Source: Ostreococcus lucimarinus
Lineage: Eukaryota
Reading direction: 5' to 3' (one strand)
Assembly (NCBI GenBank): GCA_000092065.1
Contig: CP000585.1
Length of the DNA stretch: 64,000 nt
Below the pieces are notes generated by a model that saw nothing but the letters and a program-made list of their open reading frames with translations, was not told the origin of the DNA and did not search any database. The position numbers and the translations under genes are program-made. This document shows positions 3 through 52,412 of the stretch, piece after piece. The stretch's first letter is position 1; each line of letters opens with the position of its first letter.

Positions 3-3000
3 AAGGGGTGCTTTTGCGACGGCGTGGCCACCGCGCTCGACGCCACGCAAAGCGCCGGGGCTGTTTCGTTCGCGAGCGCGTGTTCGGTGACAAGAACGAC
101 GGCGAGCGGTGACGCGATCTGCGTGGCGGCGCTGGCGAACCAGGGTGGTTCTTCTTCTTCGTCGTCGGGATCTCCGCCCGCGACGCCGGCGCCGCCGGCG
201 GGTCCCGCCGCGCCCACGGATGTGTACGCCCTTCGCACCGGTGCGAACGAGATCACGCTCGCGTGGTCCGCGAGCACGTCGAGCGATGTCGTGGCGTACG
301 CGATCGATGCGTGCGATTCGGCGAATCTCGCGACGTGCGCTACGCCGACGCGAACCACCGTCGCGGCGTCCGCCGGGACGAGCAAAGTCTTCTCAGGGGT
401 GTCCGCTCCGAACACCATGGTGTACCGCATCAAGTCTGCGACGCTGACGGAAGCGGGTGCGTCTTCGTCACCGACGGCGATTCCCGTGATCGACGCGCGC
501 GATTCGATCCTCGTCTCAAACGACGCGTCGACGAGTTCTTCGTCGTCGAGTTGCGGCTCCTTCGCGACGCCGTGCGATTCCGTTGGATCGGCGCTCGCCG
601 CGACGACATCCTCGCCGTCGACGCCGCGATCGATCTTGGTACTCCCTGGCACACACACATCTTCGTGCGGATCCACGCTCGGGTCTACGGGCGATGTCAC
701 GGTCACCTCAGCGCTCGGGGCGTCTCGCACCGTTTTGGATTGCGGCGAAAACTCTCGAGGTTTCGAAATCTCCGGGTCAGACGCCATCGAAATCTCTGGT
801 CTCACGGTAAAGAAAGGCCTCGCCACCACGGGTGGTGGATTTAAAATTACGAACGCCGATTCGGTGACGATTGACAGTGTCGACGTCGTCGAATGCAAAT
901 CGCAAACCATGGGCGGCGGCTTGCACGCGATCAACTCCACGCCGACGATTCGACATTCTCGATTCATCGGCAACATCGGTGGGAACGATCGAAGCGGCAA
1001 CAACGTCCGTGGAGCCGGCGCGTACTTTCAGACGTCTTCGCACGCTTCGTTGCAAAACGTGAGCTTCATCGGAAACGAACTGATGGATAGTGGCAAGGGC
1101 GCCGGATTGAACGTCGACGAGAACTCAAACGTCACCGCCGTTGGATTAACGCTCAAGGACAACAAGGCTTTCTTCGCCGCCGGCCTCTTTGTCGGTAGTG
1201 GCTGTCATGGTAACTTTTCAAATATTGTCGCCACGGGCAACGAAGCGTCGTACGGGGCTGCTATCGGTGTCTTTGCCGGTGGTAGACCAAAGTTCAACGG
1301 CGGCACCGTGTCAAAGAATACCGCCACTCTCTGGGGCGCGGGCGTCATCGTGTACACCACCGCGTCCGCCGAATTCAACGGATTCAATTTCACAGAAAAT
1401 GAAGCCGAAATCGGCGGTGGTGTCTTCATGTACTCCCAAAGCTCGGCCAAGATGTATAACTCGCGCGTGTCTTCGAACGTCGTTTCCAAGCACGGCGCCG
1501 GGATTCGCGTCGAGGACCGCGCCGACCTCGCGTTGGTGAGCACCGAAGTTTCGCACAACGTCGCGAATCTCGGCGGTGGTGGCGCACACGTCACTACCGG
1601 CTCGCTACTTTCCGTGAGGGGTGGTAAGTTCGAGAACAACACCGCTCCGAACGGTGCCGCATTCATGTGCGAAGGCGGCGCTCACGGCGGAGGCGAAATC
1701 GTCGGCTCTGGCGTCAGCGTCAAATCCAACGTCGCTTCTGGTCTCGGCGGCGCTATGTATCTCGCAGGTGCGTGCGATGTTCAAGTTAAAGACGCATCTG
1801 AGATTGAATCCAACTCCGCTGTGAGTGGCTCGAGCTGCCGTTCGTTGTACGCCGTCGGTGGAGGCGCTTTTGCGCTCGTACCAAACACCGAGAACGCGCC
1901 GACGAAGCTCGCAATCGAAGGTTCAACGATCGTTCGCAGAAACACTGCGCCAACTGGTGGAGCGATTTTCGTCATTCCTGCATCGACTTCTGCCGATGTG
2001 AACTCTCCGCGGGGAGCGCAAATCACCGTGACATCATCGACGTTGTCTAACAACGAAGCCAACGGCTGCGGTTCAACCGTACCCGGTCGCGGTGGGGCAA
2101 TGTTTGTGGCTGCGGGCAACCACACGCTACTGCAAGCCTCACTCAGTGAAAACACGGCGGACAAAGATGGTGGAGCGGTGTTCATCGCGAGCTTCGGCGC
2201 GCTGACGATGGATTCTTGCACCACGAGCGACAACACAGTGTCTCGGTTCGGCGGCGCCGTGGCGCACGCTGGCGCCAAACTCAAAGTCACTGCCGGTGTG
2301 ATCGAATCCAACAACGCGGGCAGCGGTGGTGGCGTGTACATCGGTGCTGATAATACCTTGCCTATGTTTGCTCTGATTGGCACGTCGTTAAAGACGAACT
2401 CGGCGACTCGCGGTGGGGCAATGTATTTCGCCGCAAATCTCGCGCTCGGAATGCTGAGTCAGCTCTCCCTCGATCGCAACGTCGCGACAGCTGGGGCTGA
2501 TTCGTACTGGCTTCGCTCGTCGAGTGCGAACGCGGAGTTTACGTGTACTGGATGCGCTTACGCTCACGCCAGTGGCTCGAGTACCGGTGTCATCGCGACC
2601 GAGGCTCTCGCGCTGACGACCGCCAGAGCGATCGCTTCGCGAATTCAATCTGGAAAAGTCACGGACGATTACTCCGTTCAGCTCGTGGACTTCTACTCGA
2701 ACCCCGTGACGAGTGAGATCGCGCCGACAGAGTGTACGATTGCGCCCGTGACGAGCTCTTCTACGCTCGCGCGGCATGAACTCGAAATCAGTGGCTCGAC
2801 GTCTGCTGCAACGAGCGCCGGCGTTGCGACATTCAGCGGATCCATCTTGCGCGGTGAGCTGAACGAGGAGTACACCGCCAAAGTTACGTGCACGCGTGAC
2901 ACCACTATGTCGCTCACGGACATCACTCCGCTCTCGCTACCTGTTCGTATCGGCCTCTGTTCCCCAGGCTCTGAACCGCTCTTCGTGCAGCACGCCGACG

Positions 3001-4496
3001 GAGTCTCCGTCGCTCGTGAATGCACGGTCTGCAAAGATCGGACGTTCAACTTCGACGGCATTGCGTGCCGCGCGTGTCCTGAAGGTGGCGACTGTCGAGG
3101 TGGCACTTCTCTCGATGCCCTGCCCGGTTGGTGGCGTTCTTCCGATTCCGCCGAAGTTCTATTCTCATGCCCGATTCGCGAATCGTGCGTCGCCGGCAAC
3201 GTCACCGGCGCGAACGCGTGTGACGAAGGATACGAAGGTCCAGTGTGTGCGCTCTGCGCCGAAGGTTACCGGCACTGGGGTGGAAAATGCTCAAAGTGCG
3301 GCTCCAACGCCTCGTTGGCGATGCCCACGCTCGGAATCATGGCGTTTATTGCGTTTTTGGTGTACATCTTCCGCAAGCCTCTCAAGCAAGCCGTCGGCAC
3401 GGTTATCTTCGCCGCTCTGCTCTTCGTCGCGCAAATTGTGGGCTTGCTCAAAGAGTACGACATCTCTTGGCCTAAATCTATCGGTCGATTGGTTGAAGTG
3501 TTGGATATCACGAACTTCAACATGGAGTCCCTCACGCCCGGGTGCTCATCGAGCAAATCCAACTACTACTCGACGTACATCACCGCAGTCGTCGTGCCGC
3601 CCGCCGTCACGTTATTCTGTGTACTCGTGTACGTCCTCATGGGCGTCATTGAACGTCGCGCGCCTTTCTATCGCTTACGCGAAATGGCGTGCGATGTGAG
3701 AACGAAGTGCCGTCGCAATGCCACTTGGCTCGTCGTGCTTTCGTACTCGGGCGTCGCGAAGACGGTGTTGCAACTCTACAATCAGCGCCATCTCGATGTG
3801 GGCACGTACTTGAGACGGGACTACTCCATCGACGCCTCCAACACGGAGCACATGGTTTATCGCATCACCGGCTACGTCGCGCTGATCGTGTATCCGATCG
3901 GTATTCCGCTCGTCATCACGTACATTCTCGTGCGCAATCGCAAACGACTCGACGATCCCTCGGTGCAGGCCAACTTCGGATTCCTCTACAACACCGTTCG
4001 CGAAGAAGTCCCTTTCTGGGAACTCACCGGGCTATTCTTGAAGTTTATGCTCGCCGCGATTCCAGTGTTTGCGAACGAACGCCTGCTGCGCATGAAGGCC
4101 AGTGCGTTCGACACAACGAGCGACTTCAACGGCGCGACGCAACTCTCGCTCGCCCAGCTCTTCATCGGCGTCGTGTTCATCGCCACGATCTGCGTGCGAC
4201 CGTACAGAAAGACACTGCACAACGTGCAATTTTCCCTCGCGATCGGGATCGTATTTGCGTTCGTCACCCTCAGTGCGAACGTTTTCAACGCCGTGAACAC
4301 GTACACGGAGCGTGAAAAAACCGGCGTCGCCGGCGTCGCCGTGGCGCTCGCCGCGGGTGCCCTGTTTGCCTCCGTCGTCAACTCGTTCCGCGCGGGCGAG
4401 TTCAAGCCCGCCTCCAAGGGCGACGCCGGCAACGACAGCGACGACAGCGCCATGAGCGCCGGCGTCGACGTCACCAAGCTCAAGTCAACCGTTTAA
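3..4496 (+). CDS. 5'-partial large receptor-like membrane protein: right-handed parallel beta-helix ectodomain (Pmp/PbH1-like repeats with GGA[MVI][YF] motifs), Cys-rich EGF/TNFR-like module, then 8-9 predicted TM helices
   Basis: The track ORF 24..4496 begins at a GTG, and the reading frame is open back to the window edge, so the gene is 5'-truncated. About 900 aa contain repeated G-x-N/T and GGAxY/F motifs typical of pectin-lyase-fold/polymorphic-membrane-protein repeats. A Cys cluster follows (CRACPEGGDCRGG...CDEGYEGPVCALCAEGY..CSKC). After it come multiple hydrophobic 20-23 aa segments (MPTLGIMAFIAFLVYIF, VIFAALLFVAQIVGLL, ITAVVVPPAVTLFCVLVYVLMGV and others). Confidence 0.7.
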   Translation, partial: KGCFCDGVATALDATQSAGAVSFASACSVTRTTASGDAICVAALANQGGSSSSSSGSPPATPAPPAGPAAPTDVYALRTGANEITLAWSASTSSDVVAYAIDACDSANLATCATPTRTTVAASAGTSKVFSGVSAPNTMVYRIKSATLTEAGASSSPTAIPVIDARDSILVSNDASTSSSSSSCGSFATPCDSVGSALAATTSSPSTPRSILVLPGTHTSSCGSTLGSTGDVTVTSALGASRTVLDCGENSRGFEISGSDAIEISGLTVKKGLATTGGGFKITNADSVTIDSVDVVECKSQTMGGGLHAINSTPTIRHSRFIGNIGGNDRSGNNVRGAGAYFQTSSHASLQNVSFIGNELMDSGKGAGLNVDENSNVTAVGLTLKDNKAFFAAGLFVGSGCHGNFSNIVATGNEASYGAAIGVFAGGRPKFNGGTVSKNTATLWGAGVIVYTTASAEFNGFNFTENEAEIGGGVFMYSQSSAKMYNSRVSSNVVSKHGAGIRVEDRADLALVSTEVSHNVANLGGGGAHVTTGSLLSVRGGKFENNTAPNGAAFMCEGGAHGGGEIVGSGVSVKSNVASGLGGAMYLAGACDVQVKDASEIESNSAVSGSSCRSLYAVGGGAFALVPNTENAPTKLAIEGSTIVRRNTAPTGGAIFVIPASTSADVNSPRGAQITVTSSTLSNNEANGCGSTVPGRGGAMFVAAGNHTLLQASLSENTADKDGGAVFIASFGALTMDSCTTSDNTVSRFGGAVAHAGAKLKVTAGVIESNNAGSGGGVYIGADNTLPMFALIGTSLKTNSATRGGAMYFAANLALGMLSQLSLDRNVATAGADSYWLRSSSANAEFTCTGCAYAHASGSSTGVIATEALALTTARAIASRIQSGKVTDDYSVQLVDFYSNPVTSEIAPTECTIAPVTSSSTLARHELEISGSTSAATSAGVATFSGSILRGELNEEYTAKVTCTRDTTMSLTDITPLSLPVRIGLCSPGSEPLFVQHADGVSVARECTVCKDRTFNFDGIACRACPEGGDCRGGTSLDALPGWWRSSDSAEVLFSCPIRESCVAGNVTGANACDEGYEGPVCALCAEGYRHWGGKCSKCGSNASLAMPTLGIMAFIAFLVYIFRKPLKQAVGTVIFAALLFVAQIVGLLKEYDISWPKSIGRLVEVLDITNFNMESLTPGCSSSKSNYYSTYITAVVVPPAVTLFCVLVYVLMGVIERRAPFYRLREMACDVRTKCRRNATWLVVLSYSGVAKTVLQLYNQRHLDVGTYLRRDYSIDASNTEHMVYRITGYVALIVYPIGIPLVITYILVRNRKRLDDPSVQANFGFLYNTVREEVPFWELTGLFLKFMLAAIPVFANERLLRMKASAFDTTSDFNGATQLSLAQLFIGVVFIATICVRPYRKTLHNVQFSLAIGIVFAFVTLSANVFNAVNTYTEREKTGVAGVAVALAAGALFASVVNSFRAGEFKPASKGDAGNDSDDSAMSAGVDVTKLKSTV

Positions 4497-24709: not shown

Positions 24710-27316
24710 TTATTTCGCCGCCGTCCTCGCCGGACCGCTTGCGGGATTAAAGTTACGCTTGAGCGCGTCCCTGTTTCCGCCGAGGAACCGAATGAGGGAG
24801 AAAAGCTCGTCGCGCACGAGCCACGTTCGAACGGCACCACGATCGGCGACAAGACAGCCGATGTTGTGCGATGGGACTTCGAAGGGTGAGTCGAGACGAC
24901 TGAGCGTCGCGATGGTTCGCTCCTTGACAGGCGAGTGGCCGTACACGGTGCTGTGCTTGCCCCAACCAGTGACGACTTGAATCTCTTCAGGCAAGTCGCG
25001 AATGTCGATCGGCATTTCGGACTTATTCTTCAACCCTGATACGAGCGCACGCGTTCCTTTGCCCGCGGCTCGAACGTCGAGCGGTGCCAAAGCGCGTTGA
25101 CGCATTCGGCGCAACCACCAACGTAAGACGCACTGCGCGGTGCCGGCGGAACGAATACGGTGCAGGTCTAAAACACCGAGATCGTCCTCGCATTGGAAGT
25201 GCCCAGCCGCTTGAGCTTGTTCGAGCCACGTCGTTGCGCGATCCCATTGACCCATCTCCTCGCAAACATCGATGAGCGCGTCAAACGTGAGCGCGTTTGG
25301 CACGATCCCTTCACTCGTCATTTGCGTCATCGCCTCGCCCGCCTTTTGCCACTCTTTACGAGCCTCATACGAAATCAATAGCGAGTTGTACGTGTGCACG
25401 GTGCGCGTGACGTCGCTCGTCAGCATGTATTTGAATGTGTCCTCCACCTCGGCGTACTCGTTGTTAACGTGAAGCACTCGGAGCAGGGCGTCGGAAACGA
25501 ACCCTCGCCATCCTGGAACTTCTTCGAGCTCGCGATCGTCGGCGAGCGCGCGTATAAGAACCGGGAGGTTCCCGACTGGACTATCGCTCACGTCGCACGT
25601 GCGTTCGAATTCGGGCAAATCGATGCCCTCCAATTCGGCTCGCTTGATTTCCTCGCGAAGCCTTTCCTCGCGACACGCCTGAAGCTTTTCAATACCGCAC
25701 AAGCAATCGAGTGTGATGGTGTCCGGCGCGAATCCCGAAAGAAGAAGTTCTTTATATATTTTCGTCGCGCGCACCCAGTCACGCTCTGCGCTCGCCTCCA
25801 TCAGGAGCGTGTTGTACGTGACGAGAGTCGATCGCACGCCCTCCGTCTCCATCACTCGTAAAACCCGTTGCGTGCCTTCAAGATTACCCGCCTTGACACA
25901 CGCCCCGAGCGCGCTGTTGAATATCACGGCCGTCGCGTGCAAACGCGGGGCAATGATGACTTGATGCAGGAGCTCGAGAGCCCGATCGATGTTGCCGCTA
26001 TTGCCGTGCGCGGTGATTAACACGCTGTACGTGGTTTCGTTCGGCATGACCCCCGCGCGCTGCATGGATTGGCTCATATTTTCCATGTCACGAATGCGTC
26101 GCTGCCTTCCGAGCGATTGCAACATACCGTTGTATGTCGTCACGTTTCGCCTGACACCTTCCGTTTGCATGCGCTCAAACACGGCGGCGGCGTCCTTGTA
26201 ACGGCCCGAGTTCACCGCGGCAGAGAGCAATGCGTTGTACACACCCGTGTCCAATTGCACGTGCGAGCTCGCAAACAAGCTTTCGAATAACTCGCTCGCC
26301 TTTTCGAATTGTCCGCCCTTGCCGTACGCGCTGATGAGGGACGTGTACACGCGCACGCTCGGGTGCCACGTGGGCCCGCGACCTCTGAAGTCGCGCTTCA
26401 TCTCCTCAAACGTTTGTTCGGCGAGCTTCCACTCAATCGCACGCGCGTACGCCGCGATCACCTCGTGATACGTCTTGGCATCCGGACCCGGGCCGTGCTC
26501 TCGCATCTCGCGCAGCAATCTCGTCGCGTCCGCGCTCGCCGGCGGACGCGAGCGCTTGCACGCTCGCAGCGTCATGTTGTAAAACGCCAGCGGCACCGCC
26601 ACGCCGTTTCGCTCGCCCGCCTTCTTCATCCGCTGCAGCGCCGAAATCGCCTCAGGCGCGTCTCCGGTATCCGCCGCGCGCAGCATCACCGCCCCATCCA
26701 CCGCCCACATCGCGTCGTTCGCGTCCCACGCCGCGCTCGTCGACTTCTCGTCGTCGTCCGACCGCAGCGCTCGCTCGAGCGCGCCGTACGACGACGACAA
26801 CCCACCGTTTCGCCGCCCACTCCCGTTTCCACCCGTCGCGCGTCGCCACCCTCGTCGACCACCGTTCGCCGCGCCATCGAACCCGCTCCCGTCGCCCGCC
26901 GCGTCGAAATCCTCGTCGCCGCTTCGCCGCGTCGTCACCTCACCGCGCGGACCCTCGACGATTTCCAGCCCCTCCCGCGCCCAACCCCGTCGCGTCGCGA
27001 CTCCCGCGTACGCCCGCGTCCCGTTCGACGCCGCCGCGCTCGACCCGTCGTCGTCGTCGTCCTCGTCGCGCGTCGTCTCGTACGACGCGAGCGCGTCGCC
27101 CTCGTCGTCGTCGTCGCGACTCGTCGCTCTGCGGTTTTTACGGCTCGCGCGCGCCGTCACGCGCGCGCCGCGCGTCGCCATCGCCGCGCGCATCGCGCGT
27201 CGCTCGAGCGCGTCCGCGTCGCTCGCGCGTCGCGCCGTCGTCGTCGACGCGCGCGGTCGTCGTCGCGCGGTCGTGCTTCCCACCGGCGCCGTCGCGACGC
27301 CGCCGCGCGTCGCCAT
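24710..27316 (-). CDS. pentatricopeptide-repeat protein with C-terminal Smr domain (PPR-SMR family: GUN1/pTAC2/SVR7/SOT1-like), plastid presequence
   Basis: At least 12 tandem 35-aa PPR motifs (VYTSLISAYGKGGQFEKASELFESL; TYNGMLQSLGRQRRIRDMENMSQSMQRAGVMPNETTYSVLITAHGNSG; and others). The C-terminal Smr domain is LDLHRIRSAGTAQCVLRWWLRRM...VVTGWGKHS. The N-terminus is Ala/Arg-rich with acidic low-complexity stretches. Confidence 0.85.
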   Translation of the reverse strand: MATRGGVATAPVGSTTARRRPRASTTTARRASDADALERRAMRAAMATRGARVTARASRKNRRATSRDDDDEGDALASYETTRDEDDDDDGSSAAASNGTRAYAGVATRRGWAREGLEIVEGPRGEVTTRRSGDEDFDAAGDGSGFDGAANGGRRGWRRATGGNGSGRRNGGLSSSYGALERALRSDDDEKSTSAAWDANDAMWAVDGAVMLRAADTGDAPEAISALQRMKKAGERNGVAVPLAFYNMTLRACKRSRPPASADATRLLREMREHGPGPDAKTYHEVIAAYARAIEWKLAEQTFEEMKRDFRGRGPTWHPSVRVYTSLISAYGKGGQFEKASELFESLFASSHVQLDTGVYNALLSAAVNSGRYKDAAAVFERMQTEGVRRNVTTYNGMLQSLGRQRRIRDMENMSQSMQRAGVMPNETTYSVLITAHGNSGNIDRALELLHQVIIAPRLHATAVIFNSALGACVKAGNLEGTQRVLRVMETEGVRSTLVTYNTLLMEASAERDWVRATKIYKELLLSGFAPDTITLDCLCGIEKLQACREERLREEIKRAELEGIDLPEFERTCDVSDSPVGNLPVLIRALADDRELEEVPGWRGFVSDALLRVLHVNNEYAEVEDTFKYMLTSDVTRTVHTYNSLLISYEARKEWQKAGEAMTQMTSEGIVPNALTFDALIDVCEEMGQWDRATTWLEQAQAAGHFQCEDDLGVLDLHRIRSAGTAQCVLRWWLRRMRQRALAPLDVRAAGKGTRALVSGLKNKSEMPIDIRDLPEEIQVVTGWGKHSTVYGHSPVKERTIATLSRLDSPFEVPSHNIGCLVADRGAVRTWLVRDELFSLIRFLGGNRDALKRNFNPASGPARTAAK

Positions 27317-27491
27317 CGTCGCGTCGCCGCGCGTCGCGGTGCGTCGCGCGAGACTTCGTCGCGTCGCGCGCGCGTCGTCGCCGCGCTCGCGTCGCGTCGC
27401 GCGTCGCGCGCGCGCGTGTGACGCCGCGCCGTCGCCGCCGCCGGGCCGACCGCCTTATCTGCGACCGCGTGTGCGCAAACAGTGAGGACGT

Positions 27492-27648
27492 ACGTATACG
27501 TACCCCAGATGGGTAAAGTGCGCGCTGAATACGTATACGTACCCCAGATGGGTAAAGTGCGCGCTGAATACGTATACGTACCCCAGATGGGTAAAGTGCG
27601 CGCTGAATACGTATACGTACCCCAGATGGGTAAAGTGCGCGCTTGAAT
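27492..27648. repeat. tandem array, 4 x 39 bp (ACGTATACGTACCCCAGATGGGTAAAGTGCGCGCTGAAT), in a bidirectional promoter
   Basis: Four contiguous, essentially identical units (27492, 27531, 27570, 27609). The fourth has a 1-nt insertion. Each unit begins with the perfect 10-bp palindrome ACGTATACGT (ACGT core). It lies between the divergent starts of the PPR-SMR gene (27316, minus) and the lumenal-protein gene (27672, plus). Confidence 0.95.
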
Positions 27649-45713: not shown

Positions 45714-47456
45714 CGGATCTACGTTCGCGTTCGCATCGTCAGTCTTCTTGCCGAAAAATCGTCGCGCGTCCTACGTCGCCTCGCCTTCGTCGTCGTCGCA
45801 CCTTTAGACAACTGTCCGACGATCGTATTCTGCGGCGTCGCACCGCCGAGTTTCACCCCACCCGATCGCTCTCGAACAGCTCTCGTGATCTCTTTCACCT
45901 ATCGTCGCCCGTCGCGCGTCGCGCGTCGCGTCGTCAGTCTCGCGTTCGCCTCGGCGCGTCGACATCGCGGTCCGTGTGCGTGTACAGTCTCACACCGGCC
46001 CCCGTCCGCGCGGGGATACCCCCGTCGTCGCCTCGCGCGCGCACCGTCAGGCCCTGTTCCCCCGCCGCGCGCAGTGCGTCGTAACACGCGCGTTTGATCG
46101 TCCCCTCGCGGAACCGCGACGCCATTCTCGTCGCCGCGCCGCGCGCACGCCCTCGCGAATCCACGGTCGTTCGCGTCGTTCGCGACGCGATTCCCGTCGA
46201 CGAATCCGGCGCGCCGCGACGCGCGCGCGACGCGCGCGCGCCCGATCGCGCGAGATACGCGCGGTAGAGAATACGATCGAAGTCGTCGACGCGAACGAAG
46301 GCGCTCGCCGCGATCGCGCGACGCGCGAAACGCGCGTGCGAGTGCGGCGCGCGGTGCATTTCGGGCGCGCCGACCCCGTCGCGGTCGTCGAGTCCTGACT
46401 CGTCCGAGAAAATCTCTCGCGCGCGCGCGTGCCGAGCCGACAGCGCGCGCGCGCGCGCGACGCCGCGACGGCGCGCGCGGCGCGTCGATCGCGCGGCGAC
46501 GCGCGATGATGATCGCGTCGTCGATCGAACGCGGGCGAGACGGCGCCGCGACCGCGCCCGCGCGGGGAGCGGGCGTCGATCGCGCGCTCGCCCTAGAATT
46601 CCGACATTGGCACCGCACGGGGCGCTATGGGACGCAGTCGGATCCGACGCATCCGCGCGCGACGCGGCGTCGTCGCGATCGCGATCGACGTCGCGCGACG
46701 ACATCCCGCGAGCGTAACATTCGCGCGCGCGTCCGCGCGCGCGATCGTCGCGTTCGCGCGTCGCGCGACGCGTCGCGACGCGCCGAACGCCTCGACCGAC
46801 CGCGTCCGCGAGCGCGCGGCCGCGACGCGACGTCCGCGCGTCGCGCGCGCGTCGCCGCGCGCGATCAAGCGCGCGTCGCGCCGCATTCGCGCGCGCGAAT
46901 TAATCCCCGATCGCGCGCGCGCGCGTCGGGCGTCGTCGTCGCGCGTCGCGCGCCGCGCGCCCGCGCGCGCGCGTCGCGACGAGTCCCGATGGGCGCGCGC
47001 GGGCGCCCATCGCGCGAAATTGCAAAAAATACTCGACGTTTCGAATTCTCGTACGCGCATTCAGTGAGACGATGCGAACCGTTGCGAATCGCGAAAACAC
47101 GGCGGATGTCGTCGGGCGCGATGGACGACCGACCGCGCTCCAGGGGTGGCGCGCGTCGCGTCGTCGGCACTAAACCACGCGCGATGTCTCTCGCGAACGA
47201 GCTCGCGATGAAGTCCGCGGTCGCGTCTCGCGCGATCGCGACCAAGGTGCGCGCGACGGCGGCGCGCGCGCGCGAACGGCGGCGCGATCGGCGCGCGATG
47301 GCGCGCCATCGTCGACGCTTCGATCGGATACGTCGAGACGATCGGACCGCGAGGACGACGCGCGCGCGGTCGGGACGACGCGCGATCGCGCGGGGTGGTT
47401 GGAGCGAGCGTCGCGGGATGTGTAGAGACTGACGGTGGAGCACGCGCGCGCGCGCG

Positions 47457-50012
47457 ATGGATGAACAGACGATGAAGAGGACGAAGAGCGCGAGAGGGGC
47501 GCCGCGAGGCGCGCGCGCGGCGGCGAAGCGCTCGGAAGACAGCGAAGAGGTCGAGGGCGGCGCGCTGAAGCGCATCGTCGCGGCTGGTACGGTTGCGTTT
47601 TCCGTGCTCGCGGGCGTGGAGGGGGCGATCGAGCCGGCGCGCGCGGCGGGCTCGGCGACGGAGATCGTGCAACTCGCGCTCGACGCCGTCGACCCCGTCG
47701 AGGACCCTGACGCCAAGGCTGAAGCGCCCGAGCGAGTCAAGGCGGATACTTCCTCGCTCGAGGGTGCGCTTAAGGCACAAGTGCAGTCGCGAAAGTCGAC
47801 GGTGAAGGAAGCGGGTAAGAAAGCGGCCAAGGCTGCCGCCGCGCCGGCGAAGAGCGGCGCGCCCGAAGGCGCCATGTCTCCGAACGCGAAGGATTACAAG
47901 TCTGAAATCGGCGAAAGCCTCGCTACTCTGGATTATGACGCCATTATCAAGAAGACGGACGACTATTTTGTCTACCGCTACGATCGCGGCATCGATGAAT
48001 CTCAAATCATCGATCTCGACGACGAAGACGACTCTGCGACGCGCGGTCCGAAGGGCACGAAGAAACGAGTCGCGGTGGCCAAGTCCACCACCGCCCCTTC
48101 GTTCACCTTGCCGAGCTTCACCGCGCCGAGCTTCGATGCGCCGAGCTTCTCGATTCCGACGTTTGAAGTGCCGAGCATCGAAATTCCGGCTATTCCGGGT
48201 GTAGCCGAACCGGCGACCAAGAAGGACACCTCCGCCGAAGACGCCGCGAAGGCTGACGCCGCGGCCGCGAAGAAGGCCGAGGCCGAGGCCGAGGCTGCGA
48301 GGAAGGCCGAGGCCGACGCCGCGACCGCCAAGAAGGCCGAGGCCGACGCCGCGGCCGCCAAGAAAGCTGACGCTGAAGCCGCCAAGAAAGCTGACGCCGA
48401 AGCCGCCAAGAAGGCCAAGGCTGACGCTGAAGCCGCCAAGAAGGCAGCGGCGGAAGCCGCCAAGGCTGAAGCTGCCGCGAAGAAGGCTGAAAGCGCGAAG
48501 AAGCCGATGGCTGCCGCCCCGGCCGCCGGTAGCAGCGATCTTGGTTTCGATTTCGGCTCTCTCTCTCAATACATGGAATCCGCTCCGGCGGCGCCGAAGG
48601 TTGACAAGAAGGCTGAAGCCGCCGCTAAGAAGGCTGCCAAAAAGGCCGCTGCTGAGGCCGCGAAGAAGGCTGCCGAGGAAGAAAAGAAGGCCGCCGCTGC
48701 CGCGAAGGCCGCTGCGAAGGCTGCTCCGAAGCCGATGGCTGCCGCCCCGGCCGCCGGTAGCAGCGATCTTGGTTTCGATTTCGGCTCTCTCTCTCAATAC
48801 ATGGAATCCGCTCCGGCGACGCCGAAGGCACCGAAGGCTGACAACGCGTCCGCCGCCGCTGGTCAAAAGGCTGCCGAAAAGATCGCCAAGCAACAGAAAG
48901 AAGCCGCCAAGAAGGCTGAGGCCGCCGCGAAGAAGGCTGAGGCCGCCGCGAAGAAGGCTCAAGCGCAAGAGGAAGCCGCCGCCGCGCGCGCCGCCGCCAA
49001 GGCTGAGATGGCCGCGAAGAAGGCGGCCGGGAAATCCGCTGAGAAACCGACTTACAGCAAGCGCACTGTTGAAAAGAAGGCGAAGCCGACGTTCACGAAG
49101 TCTGCCAGAGATGGTAAGTTCGCTCCCTTCGCTGGGACTTACAAGACGACCGTCGTCGAGAAGGAGGCCCTCCCGGGCGTGCCCGTCGACTTCGATGCCA
49201 TCGTCGACGCCCAAGAACCCAAGGCGGAAGCGATTCTCGCCAAGGCCAACGATAAATCTGGCGATTTCTTGAACATTTCCGGTGAAGCTGGCTTCGCCAT
49301 CGCGGGTACGATTGCGTTGGTTTACGAGACGGAGGACAAGAAGTTCCGCGAGCAAGCGAAGAATGCCAAGATGCCGGCGCCGACGAAGACGAATGCTCCC
49401 TCCGGTGAAAGCACCACCGAAGGTTGGTTCGATGCAGCGCTCAAGAAATACATGAACAAAGATGGTTCCGCCCCGAAGCCAAAGCCCGTCGCCGCCGCGC
49501 CGAAGCCGGTCGCCGCCGCGCCGAAGCCGGCCGTGCCGAAGTCTGATCCGGTGAAGAACGCCAAGGAGGCGCAATCGTGGATGGACAAGTGGTCCGCGAG
49601 CAAGCCTAAGCCGGCTGCCGCCGCGGCGCCGGCGCCGGCGCCTGCCGCGCCGAAGCCCGCGGCGCCGAAGTCTGATCCGGTGAAGAACGCCAAGGAGGCA
49701 CAGTCGTGGATGGACAACTGGGAGCGCAAGGTCAAGCCGACCGCCGCCGCCGCGCCGACGCCGGTCGCCGCGCCGGCGCCGACGCCGGTCGCCGCGCCGG
49801 CGCCGACGCCGGTCGCCGCGGCGCCGAAGCCCGTCCCGACGCCGACGGTCTCGACCACCACCACTCGCACGGTCACCTCGGACAACCTGACGGCCGAGCA
49901 ACGCGCCGCCGCCGAAGCCTGGCTCAAGAAGTGGCGCGAGGACGGTCGCCCGACGGACGAGACCAAATTCGACGAGGCCAAGACGTGGTTGAAGCAGCAC
50001 AACTTCGACTGA
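47457..50012 (+). CDS. Ala/Lys/Pro/Glu-rich internally repetitive protein of unknown function
   Basis: ATG at 47457. Long KKAAEAEAAKKA low-complexity tracts. Two 90-nt nucleotide-identical copies encode KPMAAAPAAGSSDLGFDFGSLSQYMESAPA (48501..48590 and 48729..48818). Two ~57-nt copies encode PKSDPVKNAKEAQSWMD (~49536 and ~49666). An (APTPVA)3 repeat follows, and the C-terminus is non-repetitive (AWLKKWREDGRPTDETKFDEAKTWLKQHNFD). Confidence 0.7.
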   Translation: MDEQTMKRTKSARGAPRGARAAAKRSEDSEEVEGGALKRIVAAGTVAFSVLAGVEGAIEPARAAGSATEIVQLALDAVDPVEDPDAKAEAPERVKADTSSLEGALKAQVQSRKSTVKEAGKKAAKAAAAPAKSGAPEGAMSPNAKDYKSEIGESLATLDYDAIIKKTDDYFVYRYDRGIDESQIIDLDDEDDSATRGPKGTKKRVAVAKSTTAPSFTLPSFTAPSFDAPSFSIPTFEVPSIEIPAIPGVAEPATKKDTSAEDAAKADAAAAKKAEAEAEAARKAEADAATAKKAEADAAAAKKADAEAAKKADAEAAKKAKADAEAAKKAAAEAAKAEAAAKKAESAKKPMAAAPAAGSSDLGFDFGSLSQYMESAPAAPKVDKKAEAAAKKAAKKAAAEAAKKAAEEEKKAAAAAKAAAKAAPKPMAAAPAAGSSDLGFDFGSLSQYMESAPATPKAPKADNASAAAGQKAAEKIAKQQKEAAKKAEAAAKKAEAAAKKAQAQEEAAAARAAAKAEMAAKKAAGKSAEKPTYSKRTVEKKAKPTFTKSARDGKFAPFAGTYKTTVVEKEALPGVPVDFDAIVDAQEPKAEAILAKANDKSGDFLNISGEAGFAIAGTIALVYETEDKKFREQAKNAKMPAPTKTNAPSGESTTEGWFDAALKKYMNKDGSAPKPKPVAAAPKPVAAAPKPAVPKSDPVKNAKEAQSWMDKWSASKPKPAAAAAPAPAPAAPKPAAPKSDPVKNAKEAQSWMDNWERKVKPTAAAAPTPVAAPAPTPVAAPAPTPVAAAPKPVPTPTVSTTTTRTVTSDNLTAEQRAAAEAWLKKWREDGRPTDETKFDEAKTWLKQHNFD
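48501..48818 (+). repeat. intragenic segmental repeat: two 90-nt identical copies (48501..48590; 48729..48818) separated by 138 nt
   Basis: Both copies read aagccgatggctgccgccccggccgccggtagcagcgatcttggtttcgatttcggctctctctctcaatacatggaatccgctccggcg. Identity extends to synonymous positions. Confidence 0.9.
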
Positions 50013-50128
50013 GCGATTACAAACAACGAGTGAATCGTTCACATTGACTGTTCATGAAGACATTAATAAACAAACGCACACGCACTAAGCTATCCGGGTC
50101 GCGCGTCCAAGCCGACGTCGCCCTCGCG

Positions 50129-50617
50129 TCACGGCGACGTCCCCGGGGTCTCCTCTCCCCCCCCCTTTCGCGCCTCGCGCGCGACGTCGCAGCACCGCAC
50201 GTGCGGCAGATTCACCTTCCCGCACACCCCGCACCGCACCACGCTCTCCACGAACGGCAACCTCTTGAACTGATTCCTCCGTTTCCTTCGACTCGGCGTC
50301 ACCTTGCGCTTCGGCACCGCCATGAGCCACATCTCCATCACCCGCGATCCCAGTCCACCGTCCTCGAGCGTCGCGCCCGTCGCCGTCCGCGCCGTCGGCG
50401 CCATCGTCGCCGTCGCTCGCGCCTCGCGAATCGCGTCGTCGCGCGTCGCCATCGCGCGTTCGCGCGTCCGCGCGCCGTCGTCCCCGTCCGTCGCCGTCGT
50501 CGCGTCCGTCGTCGCCATCGCGCGCCGTCCCGCCGTCGCGCTCGCCGCCGCGCGCGCCGCCGTCGTCGCCGCCGTCGTCGCGCGCGTCGCGCGCGCGAGC
50601 GCGCGCGCGAGCGCCAT
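50129..50617 (-). CDS. organellar ribosomal protein bL32 with long N-terminal presequence
   Basis: The mature part MAVPKRKVTPSRRKRRNQFKRLPFVESVVRCGVCGKVNLPHVRCC matches bL32 (MAVPKKRTS.S...R.....C..CG....H..C). The start is assigned to MALARALARATRATTAA..., a presequence-like stretch. The start is uncertain because several in-frame Met lie upstream of the mature MAVPKRK. Confidence 0.75.
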   Translation of the reverse strand: MALARALARATRATTAATTAARAAASATAGRRAMATTDATTATDGDDGARTRERAMATRDDAIREARATATMAPTARTATGATLEDGGLGSRVMEMWLMAVPKRKVTPSRRKRRNQFKRLPFVESVVRCGVCGKVNLPHVRCCDVAREARKGGGEETPGTSP

Positions 50618-50862
50618 GCGCGCGTCGCGGTGTGCGTCTCGGTTTCCATCGTCGCACTGTTTGCCCATACGAAATCGCGCAACGTCGAGGTTTTATTATC
50701 CACCCGCGTCGATCGCGGCGCACACGACGACGCCGCGACCGCGCGCGCGACCGGCGCGTCGGCCGATGCCGCGCGTCGGCGCGACGCCGCGCGCGTCGCT
50801 CGCCGCGCGCGGCGTCGCGCGCGCGACGCGAGGGACGGCGCGATGCGCGCGACGCGCGACGA

Positions 50863-50894
<32 letters not shown>

Positions 50895-52412
50895 CGGATC
50901 GAGCGACGGCGCGACGCGCGCGGCGACGGCGCGATCGCGCGGGCGCGACGCGCGACGCGGTGCGACGCGCTGGGAGGGCTGGAGGCGATGGACGCGAACG
51001 CGATGGCGGCGCTGGCGCGCGACGCGCACGCGCACGCGAGCGCGGTTTTCGAGACGGCGGACGTCGGCGCGCTCGCGGACGCGGTGCGCGCGGTGAGCGA
51101 TGCGAACGGTGCGGTCGGCGATGGGGCGATGGCGGTGGACGCGGACGCGCTGAAAGAGGCGATGAGCGCGGTGACGGAGGCGGAGCGCGCGGCGAAAATC
51201 GCGAGCGGGGAAATCGCGGCGCCGCAGAGAATGGAGGGATGGCTCGCGCCCGTGTCCGACGCGCTCGAGGATCTGTTGTTTGCGATTCAGGGGCAGTTGC
51301 AAGGGCTGGGGGTGCCGTACTCGACCGGGAACGCGATCATCATCGTGACGATTTTGGTCAAGTTTGTGACGTATCCGCTCACGCGAGATCAAGTCGTGAG
51401 CTCGCTGAATATGAAAAACTTGCAGCCACAGATCGCGGCGATTCGTGAGAAGTACGAGGACGACCAGGAGCGCATGAATAAGGAGATCAATCGCGTGTAC
51501 GAGGAAAACGGGGTGAACCCGCTCGCGGGGTGCGGTCCGGCGTTGTTGACGTTTCCCGTGCTCGCCGGGTTGTATCGCGCGTTCAACAACGCCGGCATCG
51601 ACGGCGCGTTTGACGAGGCTTGGTTTTTCTTACCTTCCCTCGCAGGTCCCACGGACGCGCGAGATTTGAGTTGGCTGCTGCCGCTCGACTCGGATTACGC
51701 GCCGCCGATCGGTTGGGAGGAAGCGTCGCTGTATTTGATTTTCCCGGTGCTGACGACGATTTCGCAATTCGTGAGCATGGAAGTGTTGAAACCGGAGGAG
51801 ACTGAAAAGACGGATGAGATGAAGAATCAGTCGGTGTTGCTCAAGTTGCTTCCGCTGTTCATCGGCTACATCTCCCTCACCGTTCCCGCCGGGTTAGCTC
51901 TGTACTGGTTCTGGAACAACGTATTCACGACGGGGATTCAGGTGTTTTTGCGCAACGGCGGCGCGAAGGCGACGGTGGAGGCTCCGGACGACATTAAGAT
52001 TAAGATTCCTCTCGGATGCGTGGTGATTCCGGAAGACGCGGAGATCATACCGGCCGGCACCACAGACTTCGGACCGAGCATCGTCTGGGACGAGGAGTGG
52101 CTGGCGAAATGGCGAGAGGAGCAAGTCGCCGCCGCGCCACAGTTGGCGGCGCAAAACGCCATCGCCGCGGGCATGAGCGAAGAAGACGCCAAGACGATGG
52201 AGGAAGCCCTTCGTAACCGTCTTCCGCGCAAAAAGAACATAGAAGAGCGCAATTTAGCCACAGAAACCGAGTTAAAGTCCCTGATCAAGGAGTTCAAGGC
52301 GCAAGGCAAGGACGCCACCGTGCTCGAGGAGGGTCTCGTCGCGCTTCGAGCGTACAAGGCGGAACTCAAGGCGAAGAAAGAAGAGGCCCCATCCGAAGCC
52401 GCGACGCAATAA
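50616..52412 (+). CDS. ALB3: ALB3/OXA1/YidC-family membrane insertase (thylakoid ALBINO3-like) with C-terminal charged tail
   Basis: Core GNAIIIVTILVKFVTYPLTRDQVVSSLNMKNLQPQIAAIREKYEDDQERMNKEINRVYEENGVNPLAGCGPALLTFPVLAGLYRAFNN...FFLPSLAGPT...LPLFIGYISLTVPAGLALYWFWNNVFTTGIQVFL is canonical 60-kDa inner-membrane-protein/Alb3. Start assigned to the first ATG after the Arg-rich artefact (MRASRCASRFPSS...). The conserved core begins ~300 aa later, so an internal start or an intron is possible. Confidence 0.8.

Follow-up and report, generated by a model that had tools for sequence, protein, structure and literature searches.

We find that bL32m and ALB3, the genes for a mitochondrial-type ribosomal protein bL32 and a chloroplast-type ALBINO3 insertase, very probably form an ordinary compact divergent pair of a known kind in a 64,000-nucleotide stretch of Ostreococcus lucimarinus contig CP000585.1 (assembly GCA_000092065.1; hereafter the window), with bL32m starting at 50617 on the minus strand, ALB3 starting at 50766 on the plus strand, and a spacer of 148 bp between them. 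A sequence-only reading of the same DNA had held that the first ATGs of the two genes (50616, plus; 50617, minus) overlap within a shared palindrome, an unusual arrangement that would leave no space for separate core promoters. We find that this appearance is an artefact of reading open reading frames (ORFs) in stop-poor DNA. In the arrangement proposed here, translation of bL32m would begin at the ATG at 50617 and that of ALB3 at the ATG at 50766; the 148 nt between them (50618-50765) would be non-coding, presumably holding a shared or back-to-back promoter with its elements and the short 5' leaders of both genes; and the ALB3 frame, by staying open through this spacer and through the antisense of the bL32m presequence, would mimic a start at 50616. 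The identities of the genes, their conserved start codons, the non-coding nature of the spacer and the chance level of the coincidence are shown below; the positions of the transcription starts and any overlap of the leaders are the part of this arrangement that we infer.

Conserved start codons bound a non-coding spacer

The window was compared with 12 related Ostreococcus-type contigs (L008, L009/L010, L001/L002/L011, L012, L006, L003/L004, O. tauri L005 and L015), at identities of 99 % for L008 (ALB3), 95-96 % for L009/L010 (bL32), 90 % for L001/L002/L011, 81 % for L006 and 76 % for L003/L004, and with two contigs of a more distant relative, L013/L014, in which ALB3 is 58 % identical. The head-to-head arrangement of the two genes, already recognised in the sequence-only reading, is borne out in 11 of the 12 Ostreococcus-type loci and in L013/L014; L002 is not long enough for a bL32 neighbour to be confirmed, and L007 does not reach bL32.

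A bL32m start homologous to 50617 is found in eight loci, followed by presequences of 90-102 aa that begin MALARALARA in the window, L008, L009, L010 and L001, MPLARALARA in L012, MLRAVVTRAG in L006 and MRRAVARAV in L003. In the four pairwise comparisons from which all gap counts given here are taken, none of the eight gaps in the presequence departs from a multiple of three, and the GC content at third codon positions (GC3) is 0.93.

On the other strand, an ALB3 start ATG homologous to 50766 is kept in seven loci from several Ostreococcus clades (L009, L010, L001, L012, L006, L003 and P0122, a protein from another assembly). The start sequence is MPRVGATPRASLAARGVARATR in the window and MAPSATAPRALAATRGVARATR in L001; ALB3 of L009, L010, L012 and P0122 begins MPRVG or MPRVA, and the beginning of P0122, MPRVGATPRASL, is also what the window reads from 50766. 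Counted from the homologue of this ATG, the N-region that precedes PQRMEGW is 138-158 aa long in all seven loci, and in L006 and L003 an in-frame stop lies just upstream of the first ALB3 ATG. The region is Arg/Ala/Thr/Ser-rich, with acidic residues absent for about 45 aa from 50766, GC3 is 0.92 over 50766-50987, and gaps are in frame (6, 42 and 9 nt) except for one compensating 1+2 pair. In-frame variants of a (GACGGC)n run within the region occur in P0122 (+2 aa), P0116 and L009.

The DNA between the two start codons behaves as non-coding. Its length is 148, 148, 149, 149, 158, 158, 173, 169 and 246 nt in nine loci, 11 of its 13 gaps have lengths not divisible by three (the spacers differ in net length by 1, 1, 10 and 25 nt), and GC3 in the ALB3 frame is 0.68 over 50616-50765 compared with 0.92-0.93 on the flanks. 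There is a trough in GC content, to 0.43-0.60, at 50630-50700; no plus-strand ATG lies inside 50618-50765, and a search for non-coding RNAs returns no Rfam match at E <= 1 in 50000-51300.

The two supposed starts do meet in a CATG at 50615-50618, as had been claimed, with the ATG at 50616 in the frame of the insertase ORF and the ATG at 50617 in that of the bL32 ORF. This CATG is found only in the closest strains (the window, L008, L009 and L010). In L009/L010, where the spacer is 149 nt, its plus-strand ATG is out of frame and an ALB3-frame stop (3028 / 3031) precedes the ALB3 ATG; in L001, L011 and L012 CAT is followed by C (CATC), so that no plus-strand ATG exists. The minus-strand ATG at 50617 alone is conserved as a start, and the plus-strand ATG at 50616 is an incidental by-product of a bL32m start codon with C at -1, which gives CATG. 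Nor is 50616 the first in-frame ATG of the plus frame, as had been stated: the frame is open from a stop at 50271 and has an earlier ATG at 50322, antisense to the bL32 domain. Likewise, the bL32 ORF on the minus strand reaches back to an in-frame ATG at 50668, beyond which a stop lies at 50695.

The sequence-only reading had left two ways out, namely an internal start in at least one gene or 5' leaders that overlap as antisense transcripts. The first is supported on comparative evidence by the ALB3 start at 50766; any overlap of the leaders belongs to the inferred part described above. An internal ATG with a spacer of more than 100 bp, which that reading had named as the finding that would tell against it, is thus what we find, in comparative form. 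With 148 nt between conserved start codons, the claim that there is no room for separate core promoters does not hold.

Evidence against these starts, and other possible starts

Several points weigh against the starts proposed here. The use of both start codons is deduced from conservation only. The NCBI model of O. lucimarinus ALB3 is a 264-aa partial protein without a start, and the O. tauri reference (L005, CAID01000005.2) provides no curated start for comparison, with 20 Ns at 2803-2822 inside the bL32/ALB3 spacer. Both O. tauri gene models are partial, and the distance from MAVPKRK, the beginning of the mature bL32m domain, to PQRMEGW is 594 nt, whereas every other locus has about 900; the gap accounts for the partial bL32 model and for the lack of a transit peptide in the ALB3 model, and we rejected O. 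tauri as a reference for either start. In L008, which is 99 % identical to the window, an 11-nt insertion in the (GACGGC)n run (around 3040-3060) puts the equivalent of the 50766 ATG out of frame; unless it is an assembly error, it argues against coding upstream of about 50890. Single-base indels are many in L011 relative to L001 (L011 coming from a second sample in the same contig-naming series), so an assembly error in L008 is plausible, if unproven. Finally, in both the window and L008 an open frame runs from the plus-strand ATG at 50616 into ALB3; if ALB3 were transcribed from upstream of 50616 in this strain, a product longer by 50 aa would result, although we regard such an isoform as the less likely outcome. 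An exact look-up of the window candidates in a protein collection found the 179-aa bL32 ORF and none of the three ALB3 versions.

ALB3 might instead start further downstream, for example at MDANAM (50988), which would give a spacer of about 370 nt and make 50766-50987 a 5' leader. Many prokaryote-style gene callers pick this start, many metagenome gene calls of 474 aa begin MDANAM, and the L008 insertion, which breaks the frame upstream of about 50890, speaks for it. Against it stand the GC3 and the in-frame gaps of 50766-50987 and the retention, across clades, of both the 50766 ATG and protein-level similarity; moreover, a chloroplast insertase needs a transit peptide, and the sequence is acidic from MDANAM onward whereas it is Arg/Ala/Thr/Ser-rich from 50766 onward. 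We therefore give the downstream start little chance.

No more probable is a bL32m start at the upstream ATG at 50668 (MGKQ...), which would leave 97 nt between the start codons. Gene callers use this ATG, which shares the bL32m frame in the window, L008, L001, L011 and L012, and the MGKQ codons are conserved; what is conserved there, however, is a 16-nt DNA motif seen in more than 100 unrelated contexts, not a peptide. Three separate 2-nt gaps fall between 50617 and 50668 when the window is compared with L001, in L009/L010 the ATG and the bL32m start are in different frames, and both the ATG and the 16-mer are absent from L003 and L006. An out-of-frame ATG at 50649 also lies between 50668 and 50617.

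Truly overlapping starts, with ALB3 translated from 50616, bL32m from 50617 and each promoter inside the transcribed region of the other gene, are very improbable: the window and L008 do have both ATGs in open frames, and the resulting 50-aa extension (MRASRCASRFPSSHC...) is without acidic residues, as a targeting peptide would be, but it is frame-shifted and stopped in L009/L010, its ATG is absent from L001, L011 and L012, the gaps there are mostly not multiples of three, its GC3 is low, all three frames are open so that openness is uninformative, and the extension would lengthen the N-region to 202 aa in this strain alone, against 138-158 aa in all relatives.

Open frames and a coincidence at chance level

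The divergent pair with starts at 50617 and 50766 leaves to be explained why the ALB3 frame seems to reach the bL32m start codon. It does so because stop codons are nearly absent from this GC-rich, low-complexity DNA: no stop occurs over 50304-50668 in four of the six frames, or over 50619-50765 in any of the three plus frames, and overlapping ORFs of 435-702 aa occur on both strands at the locus. In the phase of these two genes, third codon positions on one strand fall opposite third positions on the other, with GC contents by codon position of 0.76/0.70/0.93 (plus) and 0.70/0.76/0.93 (minus). A second phased CATG, at 50321-50324, supplies a Met in both frames (ATG 50322, plus; ATG 50323, minus), from which it follows that the coincidence is a consequence of the fixed phase of the two frames.

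We estimate how often such a case should arise by chance. In the window, CAT is followed by G with a probability of 0.27, and the frame stays open in 66 % of dinucleotide shuffles of 50619-50765, so that an overlapping, in-frame, open plus-strand ATG is expected at 0.27 x 1/3 x 0.66, or about 6 %, of start codons. In O. tauri, 2,288 bidirectional transcript pairs have been reported, comprising about half of the transcripts (PMC4035068); given this number, a genome should contain of the order of 10^2 cases. A mirror image of the coincidence has arisen independently in L006, where a CATG at the ALB3 start places a minus-strand ATG in an open bL32 frame, and L003 likewise has CATG at its ALB3 start.

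The shared palindrome fares no better. The reverse complement of GCGCCATGCGC (50611-50621) is GCGCATGGCGC, so the sequence is self-complementary over the 4 nt of CATG only, and C50614 and C50619 do not pair. A hairpin at this position was considered and rejected, as the single-stranded DNA fold is no more stable than that of shuffled sequences (z = +0.73).

The spacing is likewise unremarkable. In a neighbouring divergent pair of the window, encoding a 229-aa protein (minus, ATG 54422) and an ADH-like zinc dehydrogenase (plus, ATG 54494), the first ATGs are only 71 nt apart, and the called genes of relatives are separated by 36-92 nt. Assembly of O. tauri RNA-seq data was abandoned when overlapping untranslated regions (UTRs) concatenated transcripts (PMC4378021). 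Short divergent spacers and overlapping UTRs are thus the norm in Ostreococcus, contrary to the view of this locus as unusual. The bL32m and ALB3 genes are head-to-head, less than 1 kb apart and conserved as a pair in relatives, as would be expected of a putative bidirectional promoter. We found no literature on mapped transcription start sites or UTRs of bL32m or ALB3, only general statements.

Identity of the two genes

The window is GC-rich and eukaryotic (GC content 0.52-0.72 in 2-kb windows). The partial NCBI model mentioned above (XP_001417701.1, O. lucimarinus CCE9901) is contained exactly in the ALB3 translation of the window, which is therefore, by this match, of that species or of a near-identical strain.

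Both gene identities given in the sequence-only reading stand. The plus-strand ORF at 50304-52412 carries a 60KD_IMP (YidC/Oxa1/Alb3) domain (PF02096, E = 3.4e-47, profile positions 2-162 of 163) and matches YidC chains in the PDB at 8e-20. Its named relatives are ALBINO3 (Chlorella), chloroplastic PPF-1 (Lolium), ALB31 (Gonium) and ALBINO3-like 2, at identities of 43-50 %, and these nearest relatives point to the chloroplast ALBINO3 type rather than to mitochondrial Oxa1, an assignment made from named similarity matches. The minus-strand ORF at 50129-50668 carries a Ribosomal_L32p domain (PF01783, E = 1.3e-10) with the zinc-binding Cys motif of bL32 (RCGVCGKVNLPHVRCC). Its top PDB matches are the bL32m chains of 9evs (1.1e-9) and 6xyw (At1g26740, 5.8e-9), with bacterial L32 at 9e-5 or weaker, which indicates a bL32 of mitochondrial type (bL32m), nearer to mitoribosomal than to bacterial or plastid L32 and bearing an N-terminal extension. 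As judged from these matches, the pair thus comprises one chloroplast-biogenesis gene and one mitochondrial-biogenesis gene.

Features of the locus and neighbouring genes

Conserved blocks in the spacer are listed with the other predicted features in Table 1. The GTTATCC(A) core of the A/T-rich block also occurs in L012 and twice in the spacer of L003; GTTATCC is not enriched in the window (3 found, 3.2 expected). Within the block nearest to ALB3, TCGAT..CGC and CACACGACG are retained in close strains and, in part, in L006 and L003.

Table 1. Predicted features of the bL32m/ALB3 locus, in window coordinates
Feature	Position	Strand	Remarks
bL32m gene	50129..50617	-	162 aa plus stop
bL32m presequence, ~98 aa	50324-50617	-	mature domain starts MAVPKRK at 50323
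Spurious upstream extension of the ALB3 frame	50304..50765	+	antisense through bL32m presequence, then spacer; not conserved in relatives
CATG	50615..50618	.	CAT is the real bL32m start codon; plus-strand ATG incidental
Non-coding divergent spacer	50618..50765	.	148 nt between conserved start codons
Non-conserved upstream extension of the bL32 ORF (MGKQCDDGNRDAHRDAR)	50618..50668	-	ATG 50668 inside conserved 16-mer
Conserved 16-mer ACTGTTTGCCCATACG	50656..50671	+	best-conserved spacer block; candidate cis element
Conserved A/T-rich block AGGTTTTATTATCCA	50688..50702	+	shared by window, L008-L011, L001
Conserved block GTCGATCGCGGCGCACACGACGACGCCGCG	50708..50737	+	upstream of ALB3 start
ALB3-like YidC/Oxa1/Alb3 insertase gene	50766..52412	+	548 aa plus stop
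ALB3 N-region, transit-peptide-like, Arg/Ala/Thr-rich	50766 to about 51221	+	conserved core from PQRMEGW at 51222
(GACGGC)5 microsatellite	50864..50893	+	encodes (Thr-Ala)n in ALB3 transit-peptide-like region; length varies between strains

Upstream of the pair, at 47457-50012 on the plus strand, lies a gene whose 851-aa product is low in complexity, rich in Ala, Lys and Glu and internally repetitive (for example PMAAAPAAGSSDLGFDFGSLSQYMESAPA x2 and DPVKNAKEAQSWMD x2), without a Pfam match; the gene is kept in position in all related loci long enough on that bL32 side. Downstream of ALB3, a DOT1-like gene is called in most Ostreococcus-type loci long enough to include its position. In the more distant relative L013 (GC content 0.61), ALB3 lies at 1492-3746 (minus) and bL32m at 4001-4462 (plus), and their called starts are 254 nt apart. 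The ALB3 call is split in two in this contig, pointing to an intron or a frameshift.

A dispersed 16-mer in the spacer

The best-conserved block of the spacer, ACTGTTTGCCCATACG, is exact in the window, L008, L009, L010, L001 and L011 and has one mismatch in L012, with flanks that diverge; its minus strand supplies the ATG of the MGKQ pseudo-start at 50668. The same 16-mer occurs exactly in at least 120 metagenome stretches (L016-L135), mostly marine eukaryote-like contigs with GC contents of 0.55-0.71. In roughly 1 Mb of matching contigs, copies with 1, 2 and 3 mismatches number 62, 63 and 72, compared with 0.02, 0.4 and 5.9 expected, and near-matches are enriched more than 100-fold. Among the matches listed, 186 copies carry no more than one mismatch; 27 of these belong to a family of short GT...AG repeats of about 90 nt (GGTACGG..TTTCCCAAATCC..-motif-AGACTGACACTTT..CAG) in which the 16-mer forms the core, and the 147 unique contexts are alike only in a G at -1. 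We take the GT...AG family to resemble Micromonas introner elements.

One contig, L080 (6,092 bp), is a complete-looking DNA transposon with 166-bp terminal inverted repeats, each of which contains two copies of the 16-mer together with TCGGATACTTTCGGAT repeats; it encodes a 1053-aa MULE/SWIM transposase (PF10551, 1.1e-12; ZSWIM1-3 RNaseH-like, 2.1e-21) and a 573-aa OTU-protease protein. In the window itself the motif is rare, with a variant, ACTGTTTGCGCACACG, at 27468-27483 (minus) and one weak site at 45973. The variant is part of a further divergent spacer, flanked by ORF starts at 27316 (minus) and 27672 (plus), and is adjoined by a tandem repeat at 27490-27580 with a unit of about 40 nt (acgtatacgtaccccagatgggtaaagtgcgcgctgaat).

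The simplest idea for the role of the 16-mer is a putative protein-binding site that is shared with a transposon family. A more specific proposal, which we regard as doubtful, is that it is a candidate site for a sequence-specific protein, possibly the MULE transposase or a domesticated relative, exapted as a promoter element shared by bL32m and ALB3; plant FHY3/FAR1 would, we presume, be the analogy for a domesticated MULE transposase that binds it. A flanking hairpin was considered and set aside, as a stem of at least 5 bp is found at 2.4 % of sites and 1.6 % of controls. A test of coding against non-coding context by stop-free length does not discriminate in this range of GC content, and we did not find the 16-mer in a relevant context in the literature.

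Implications and comparison with known systems

As first stated, the overlap of the two start codons matters little, and the lead of wider interest is the dispersed 16-mer. The case cautions that the first in-frame ATG and the length of an ORF are unreliable guides to start codons in GC-rich picoalgal genomes, and illustrates that a few related strains, through frame-breaking indels, stops and GC3, can settle such cases without RNA data. It also gives probable full-length starts for two genes whose public annotation is partial or absent (the 264-aa O. lucimarinus ALB3 fragment; the O. tauri gap).

The locus can be set beside four known systems. The bL32m of the plant mitoribosome (At1g26740 in 6xyw; 9evs) provides the best solved-structure matches to the window protein; the match reaches past the N-terminal end of the bacterial-type L32 core (query 81-147), and the protein retains the zinc-binding Cys pairs; it differs in a predicted presequence of about 98 aa that is low in complexity and variable in length. 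With the subterminal repeats of MULE transposons and with introner-type introns, the spacer shares an identical 16-mer but no flanking similarity, terminal inverted repeat or target-site duplication, and it is therefore not demonstrably a transposon remnant. Like the spurious extended ORFs familiar from GC-rich DNA, this locus has stop-poor antisense and upstream frames with shared third positions; it differs in that the artefact here meets a genuine start codon of the opposite strand, giving CATG. In arrangement the locus is like the compact divergent promoters of the nuclear genomes of Ostreococcus and other Mamiellales, as the genes are head-to-head, 100-250 nt apart, and kept so across the genus and in a distant relative. 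The sole peculiarity is that no plus frame of the spacer contains a stop, which is why the ALB3 ORF seems to reach its neighbour's start codon, and we see nothing different in kind from other divergent pairs of this group.

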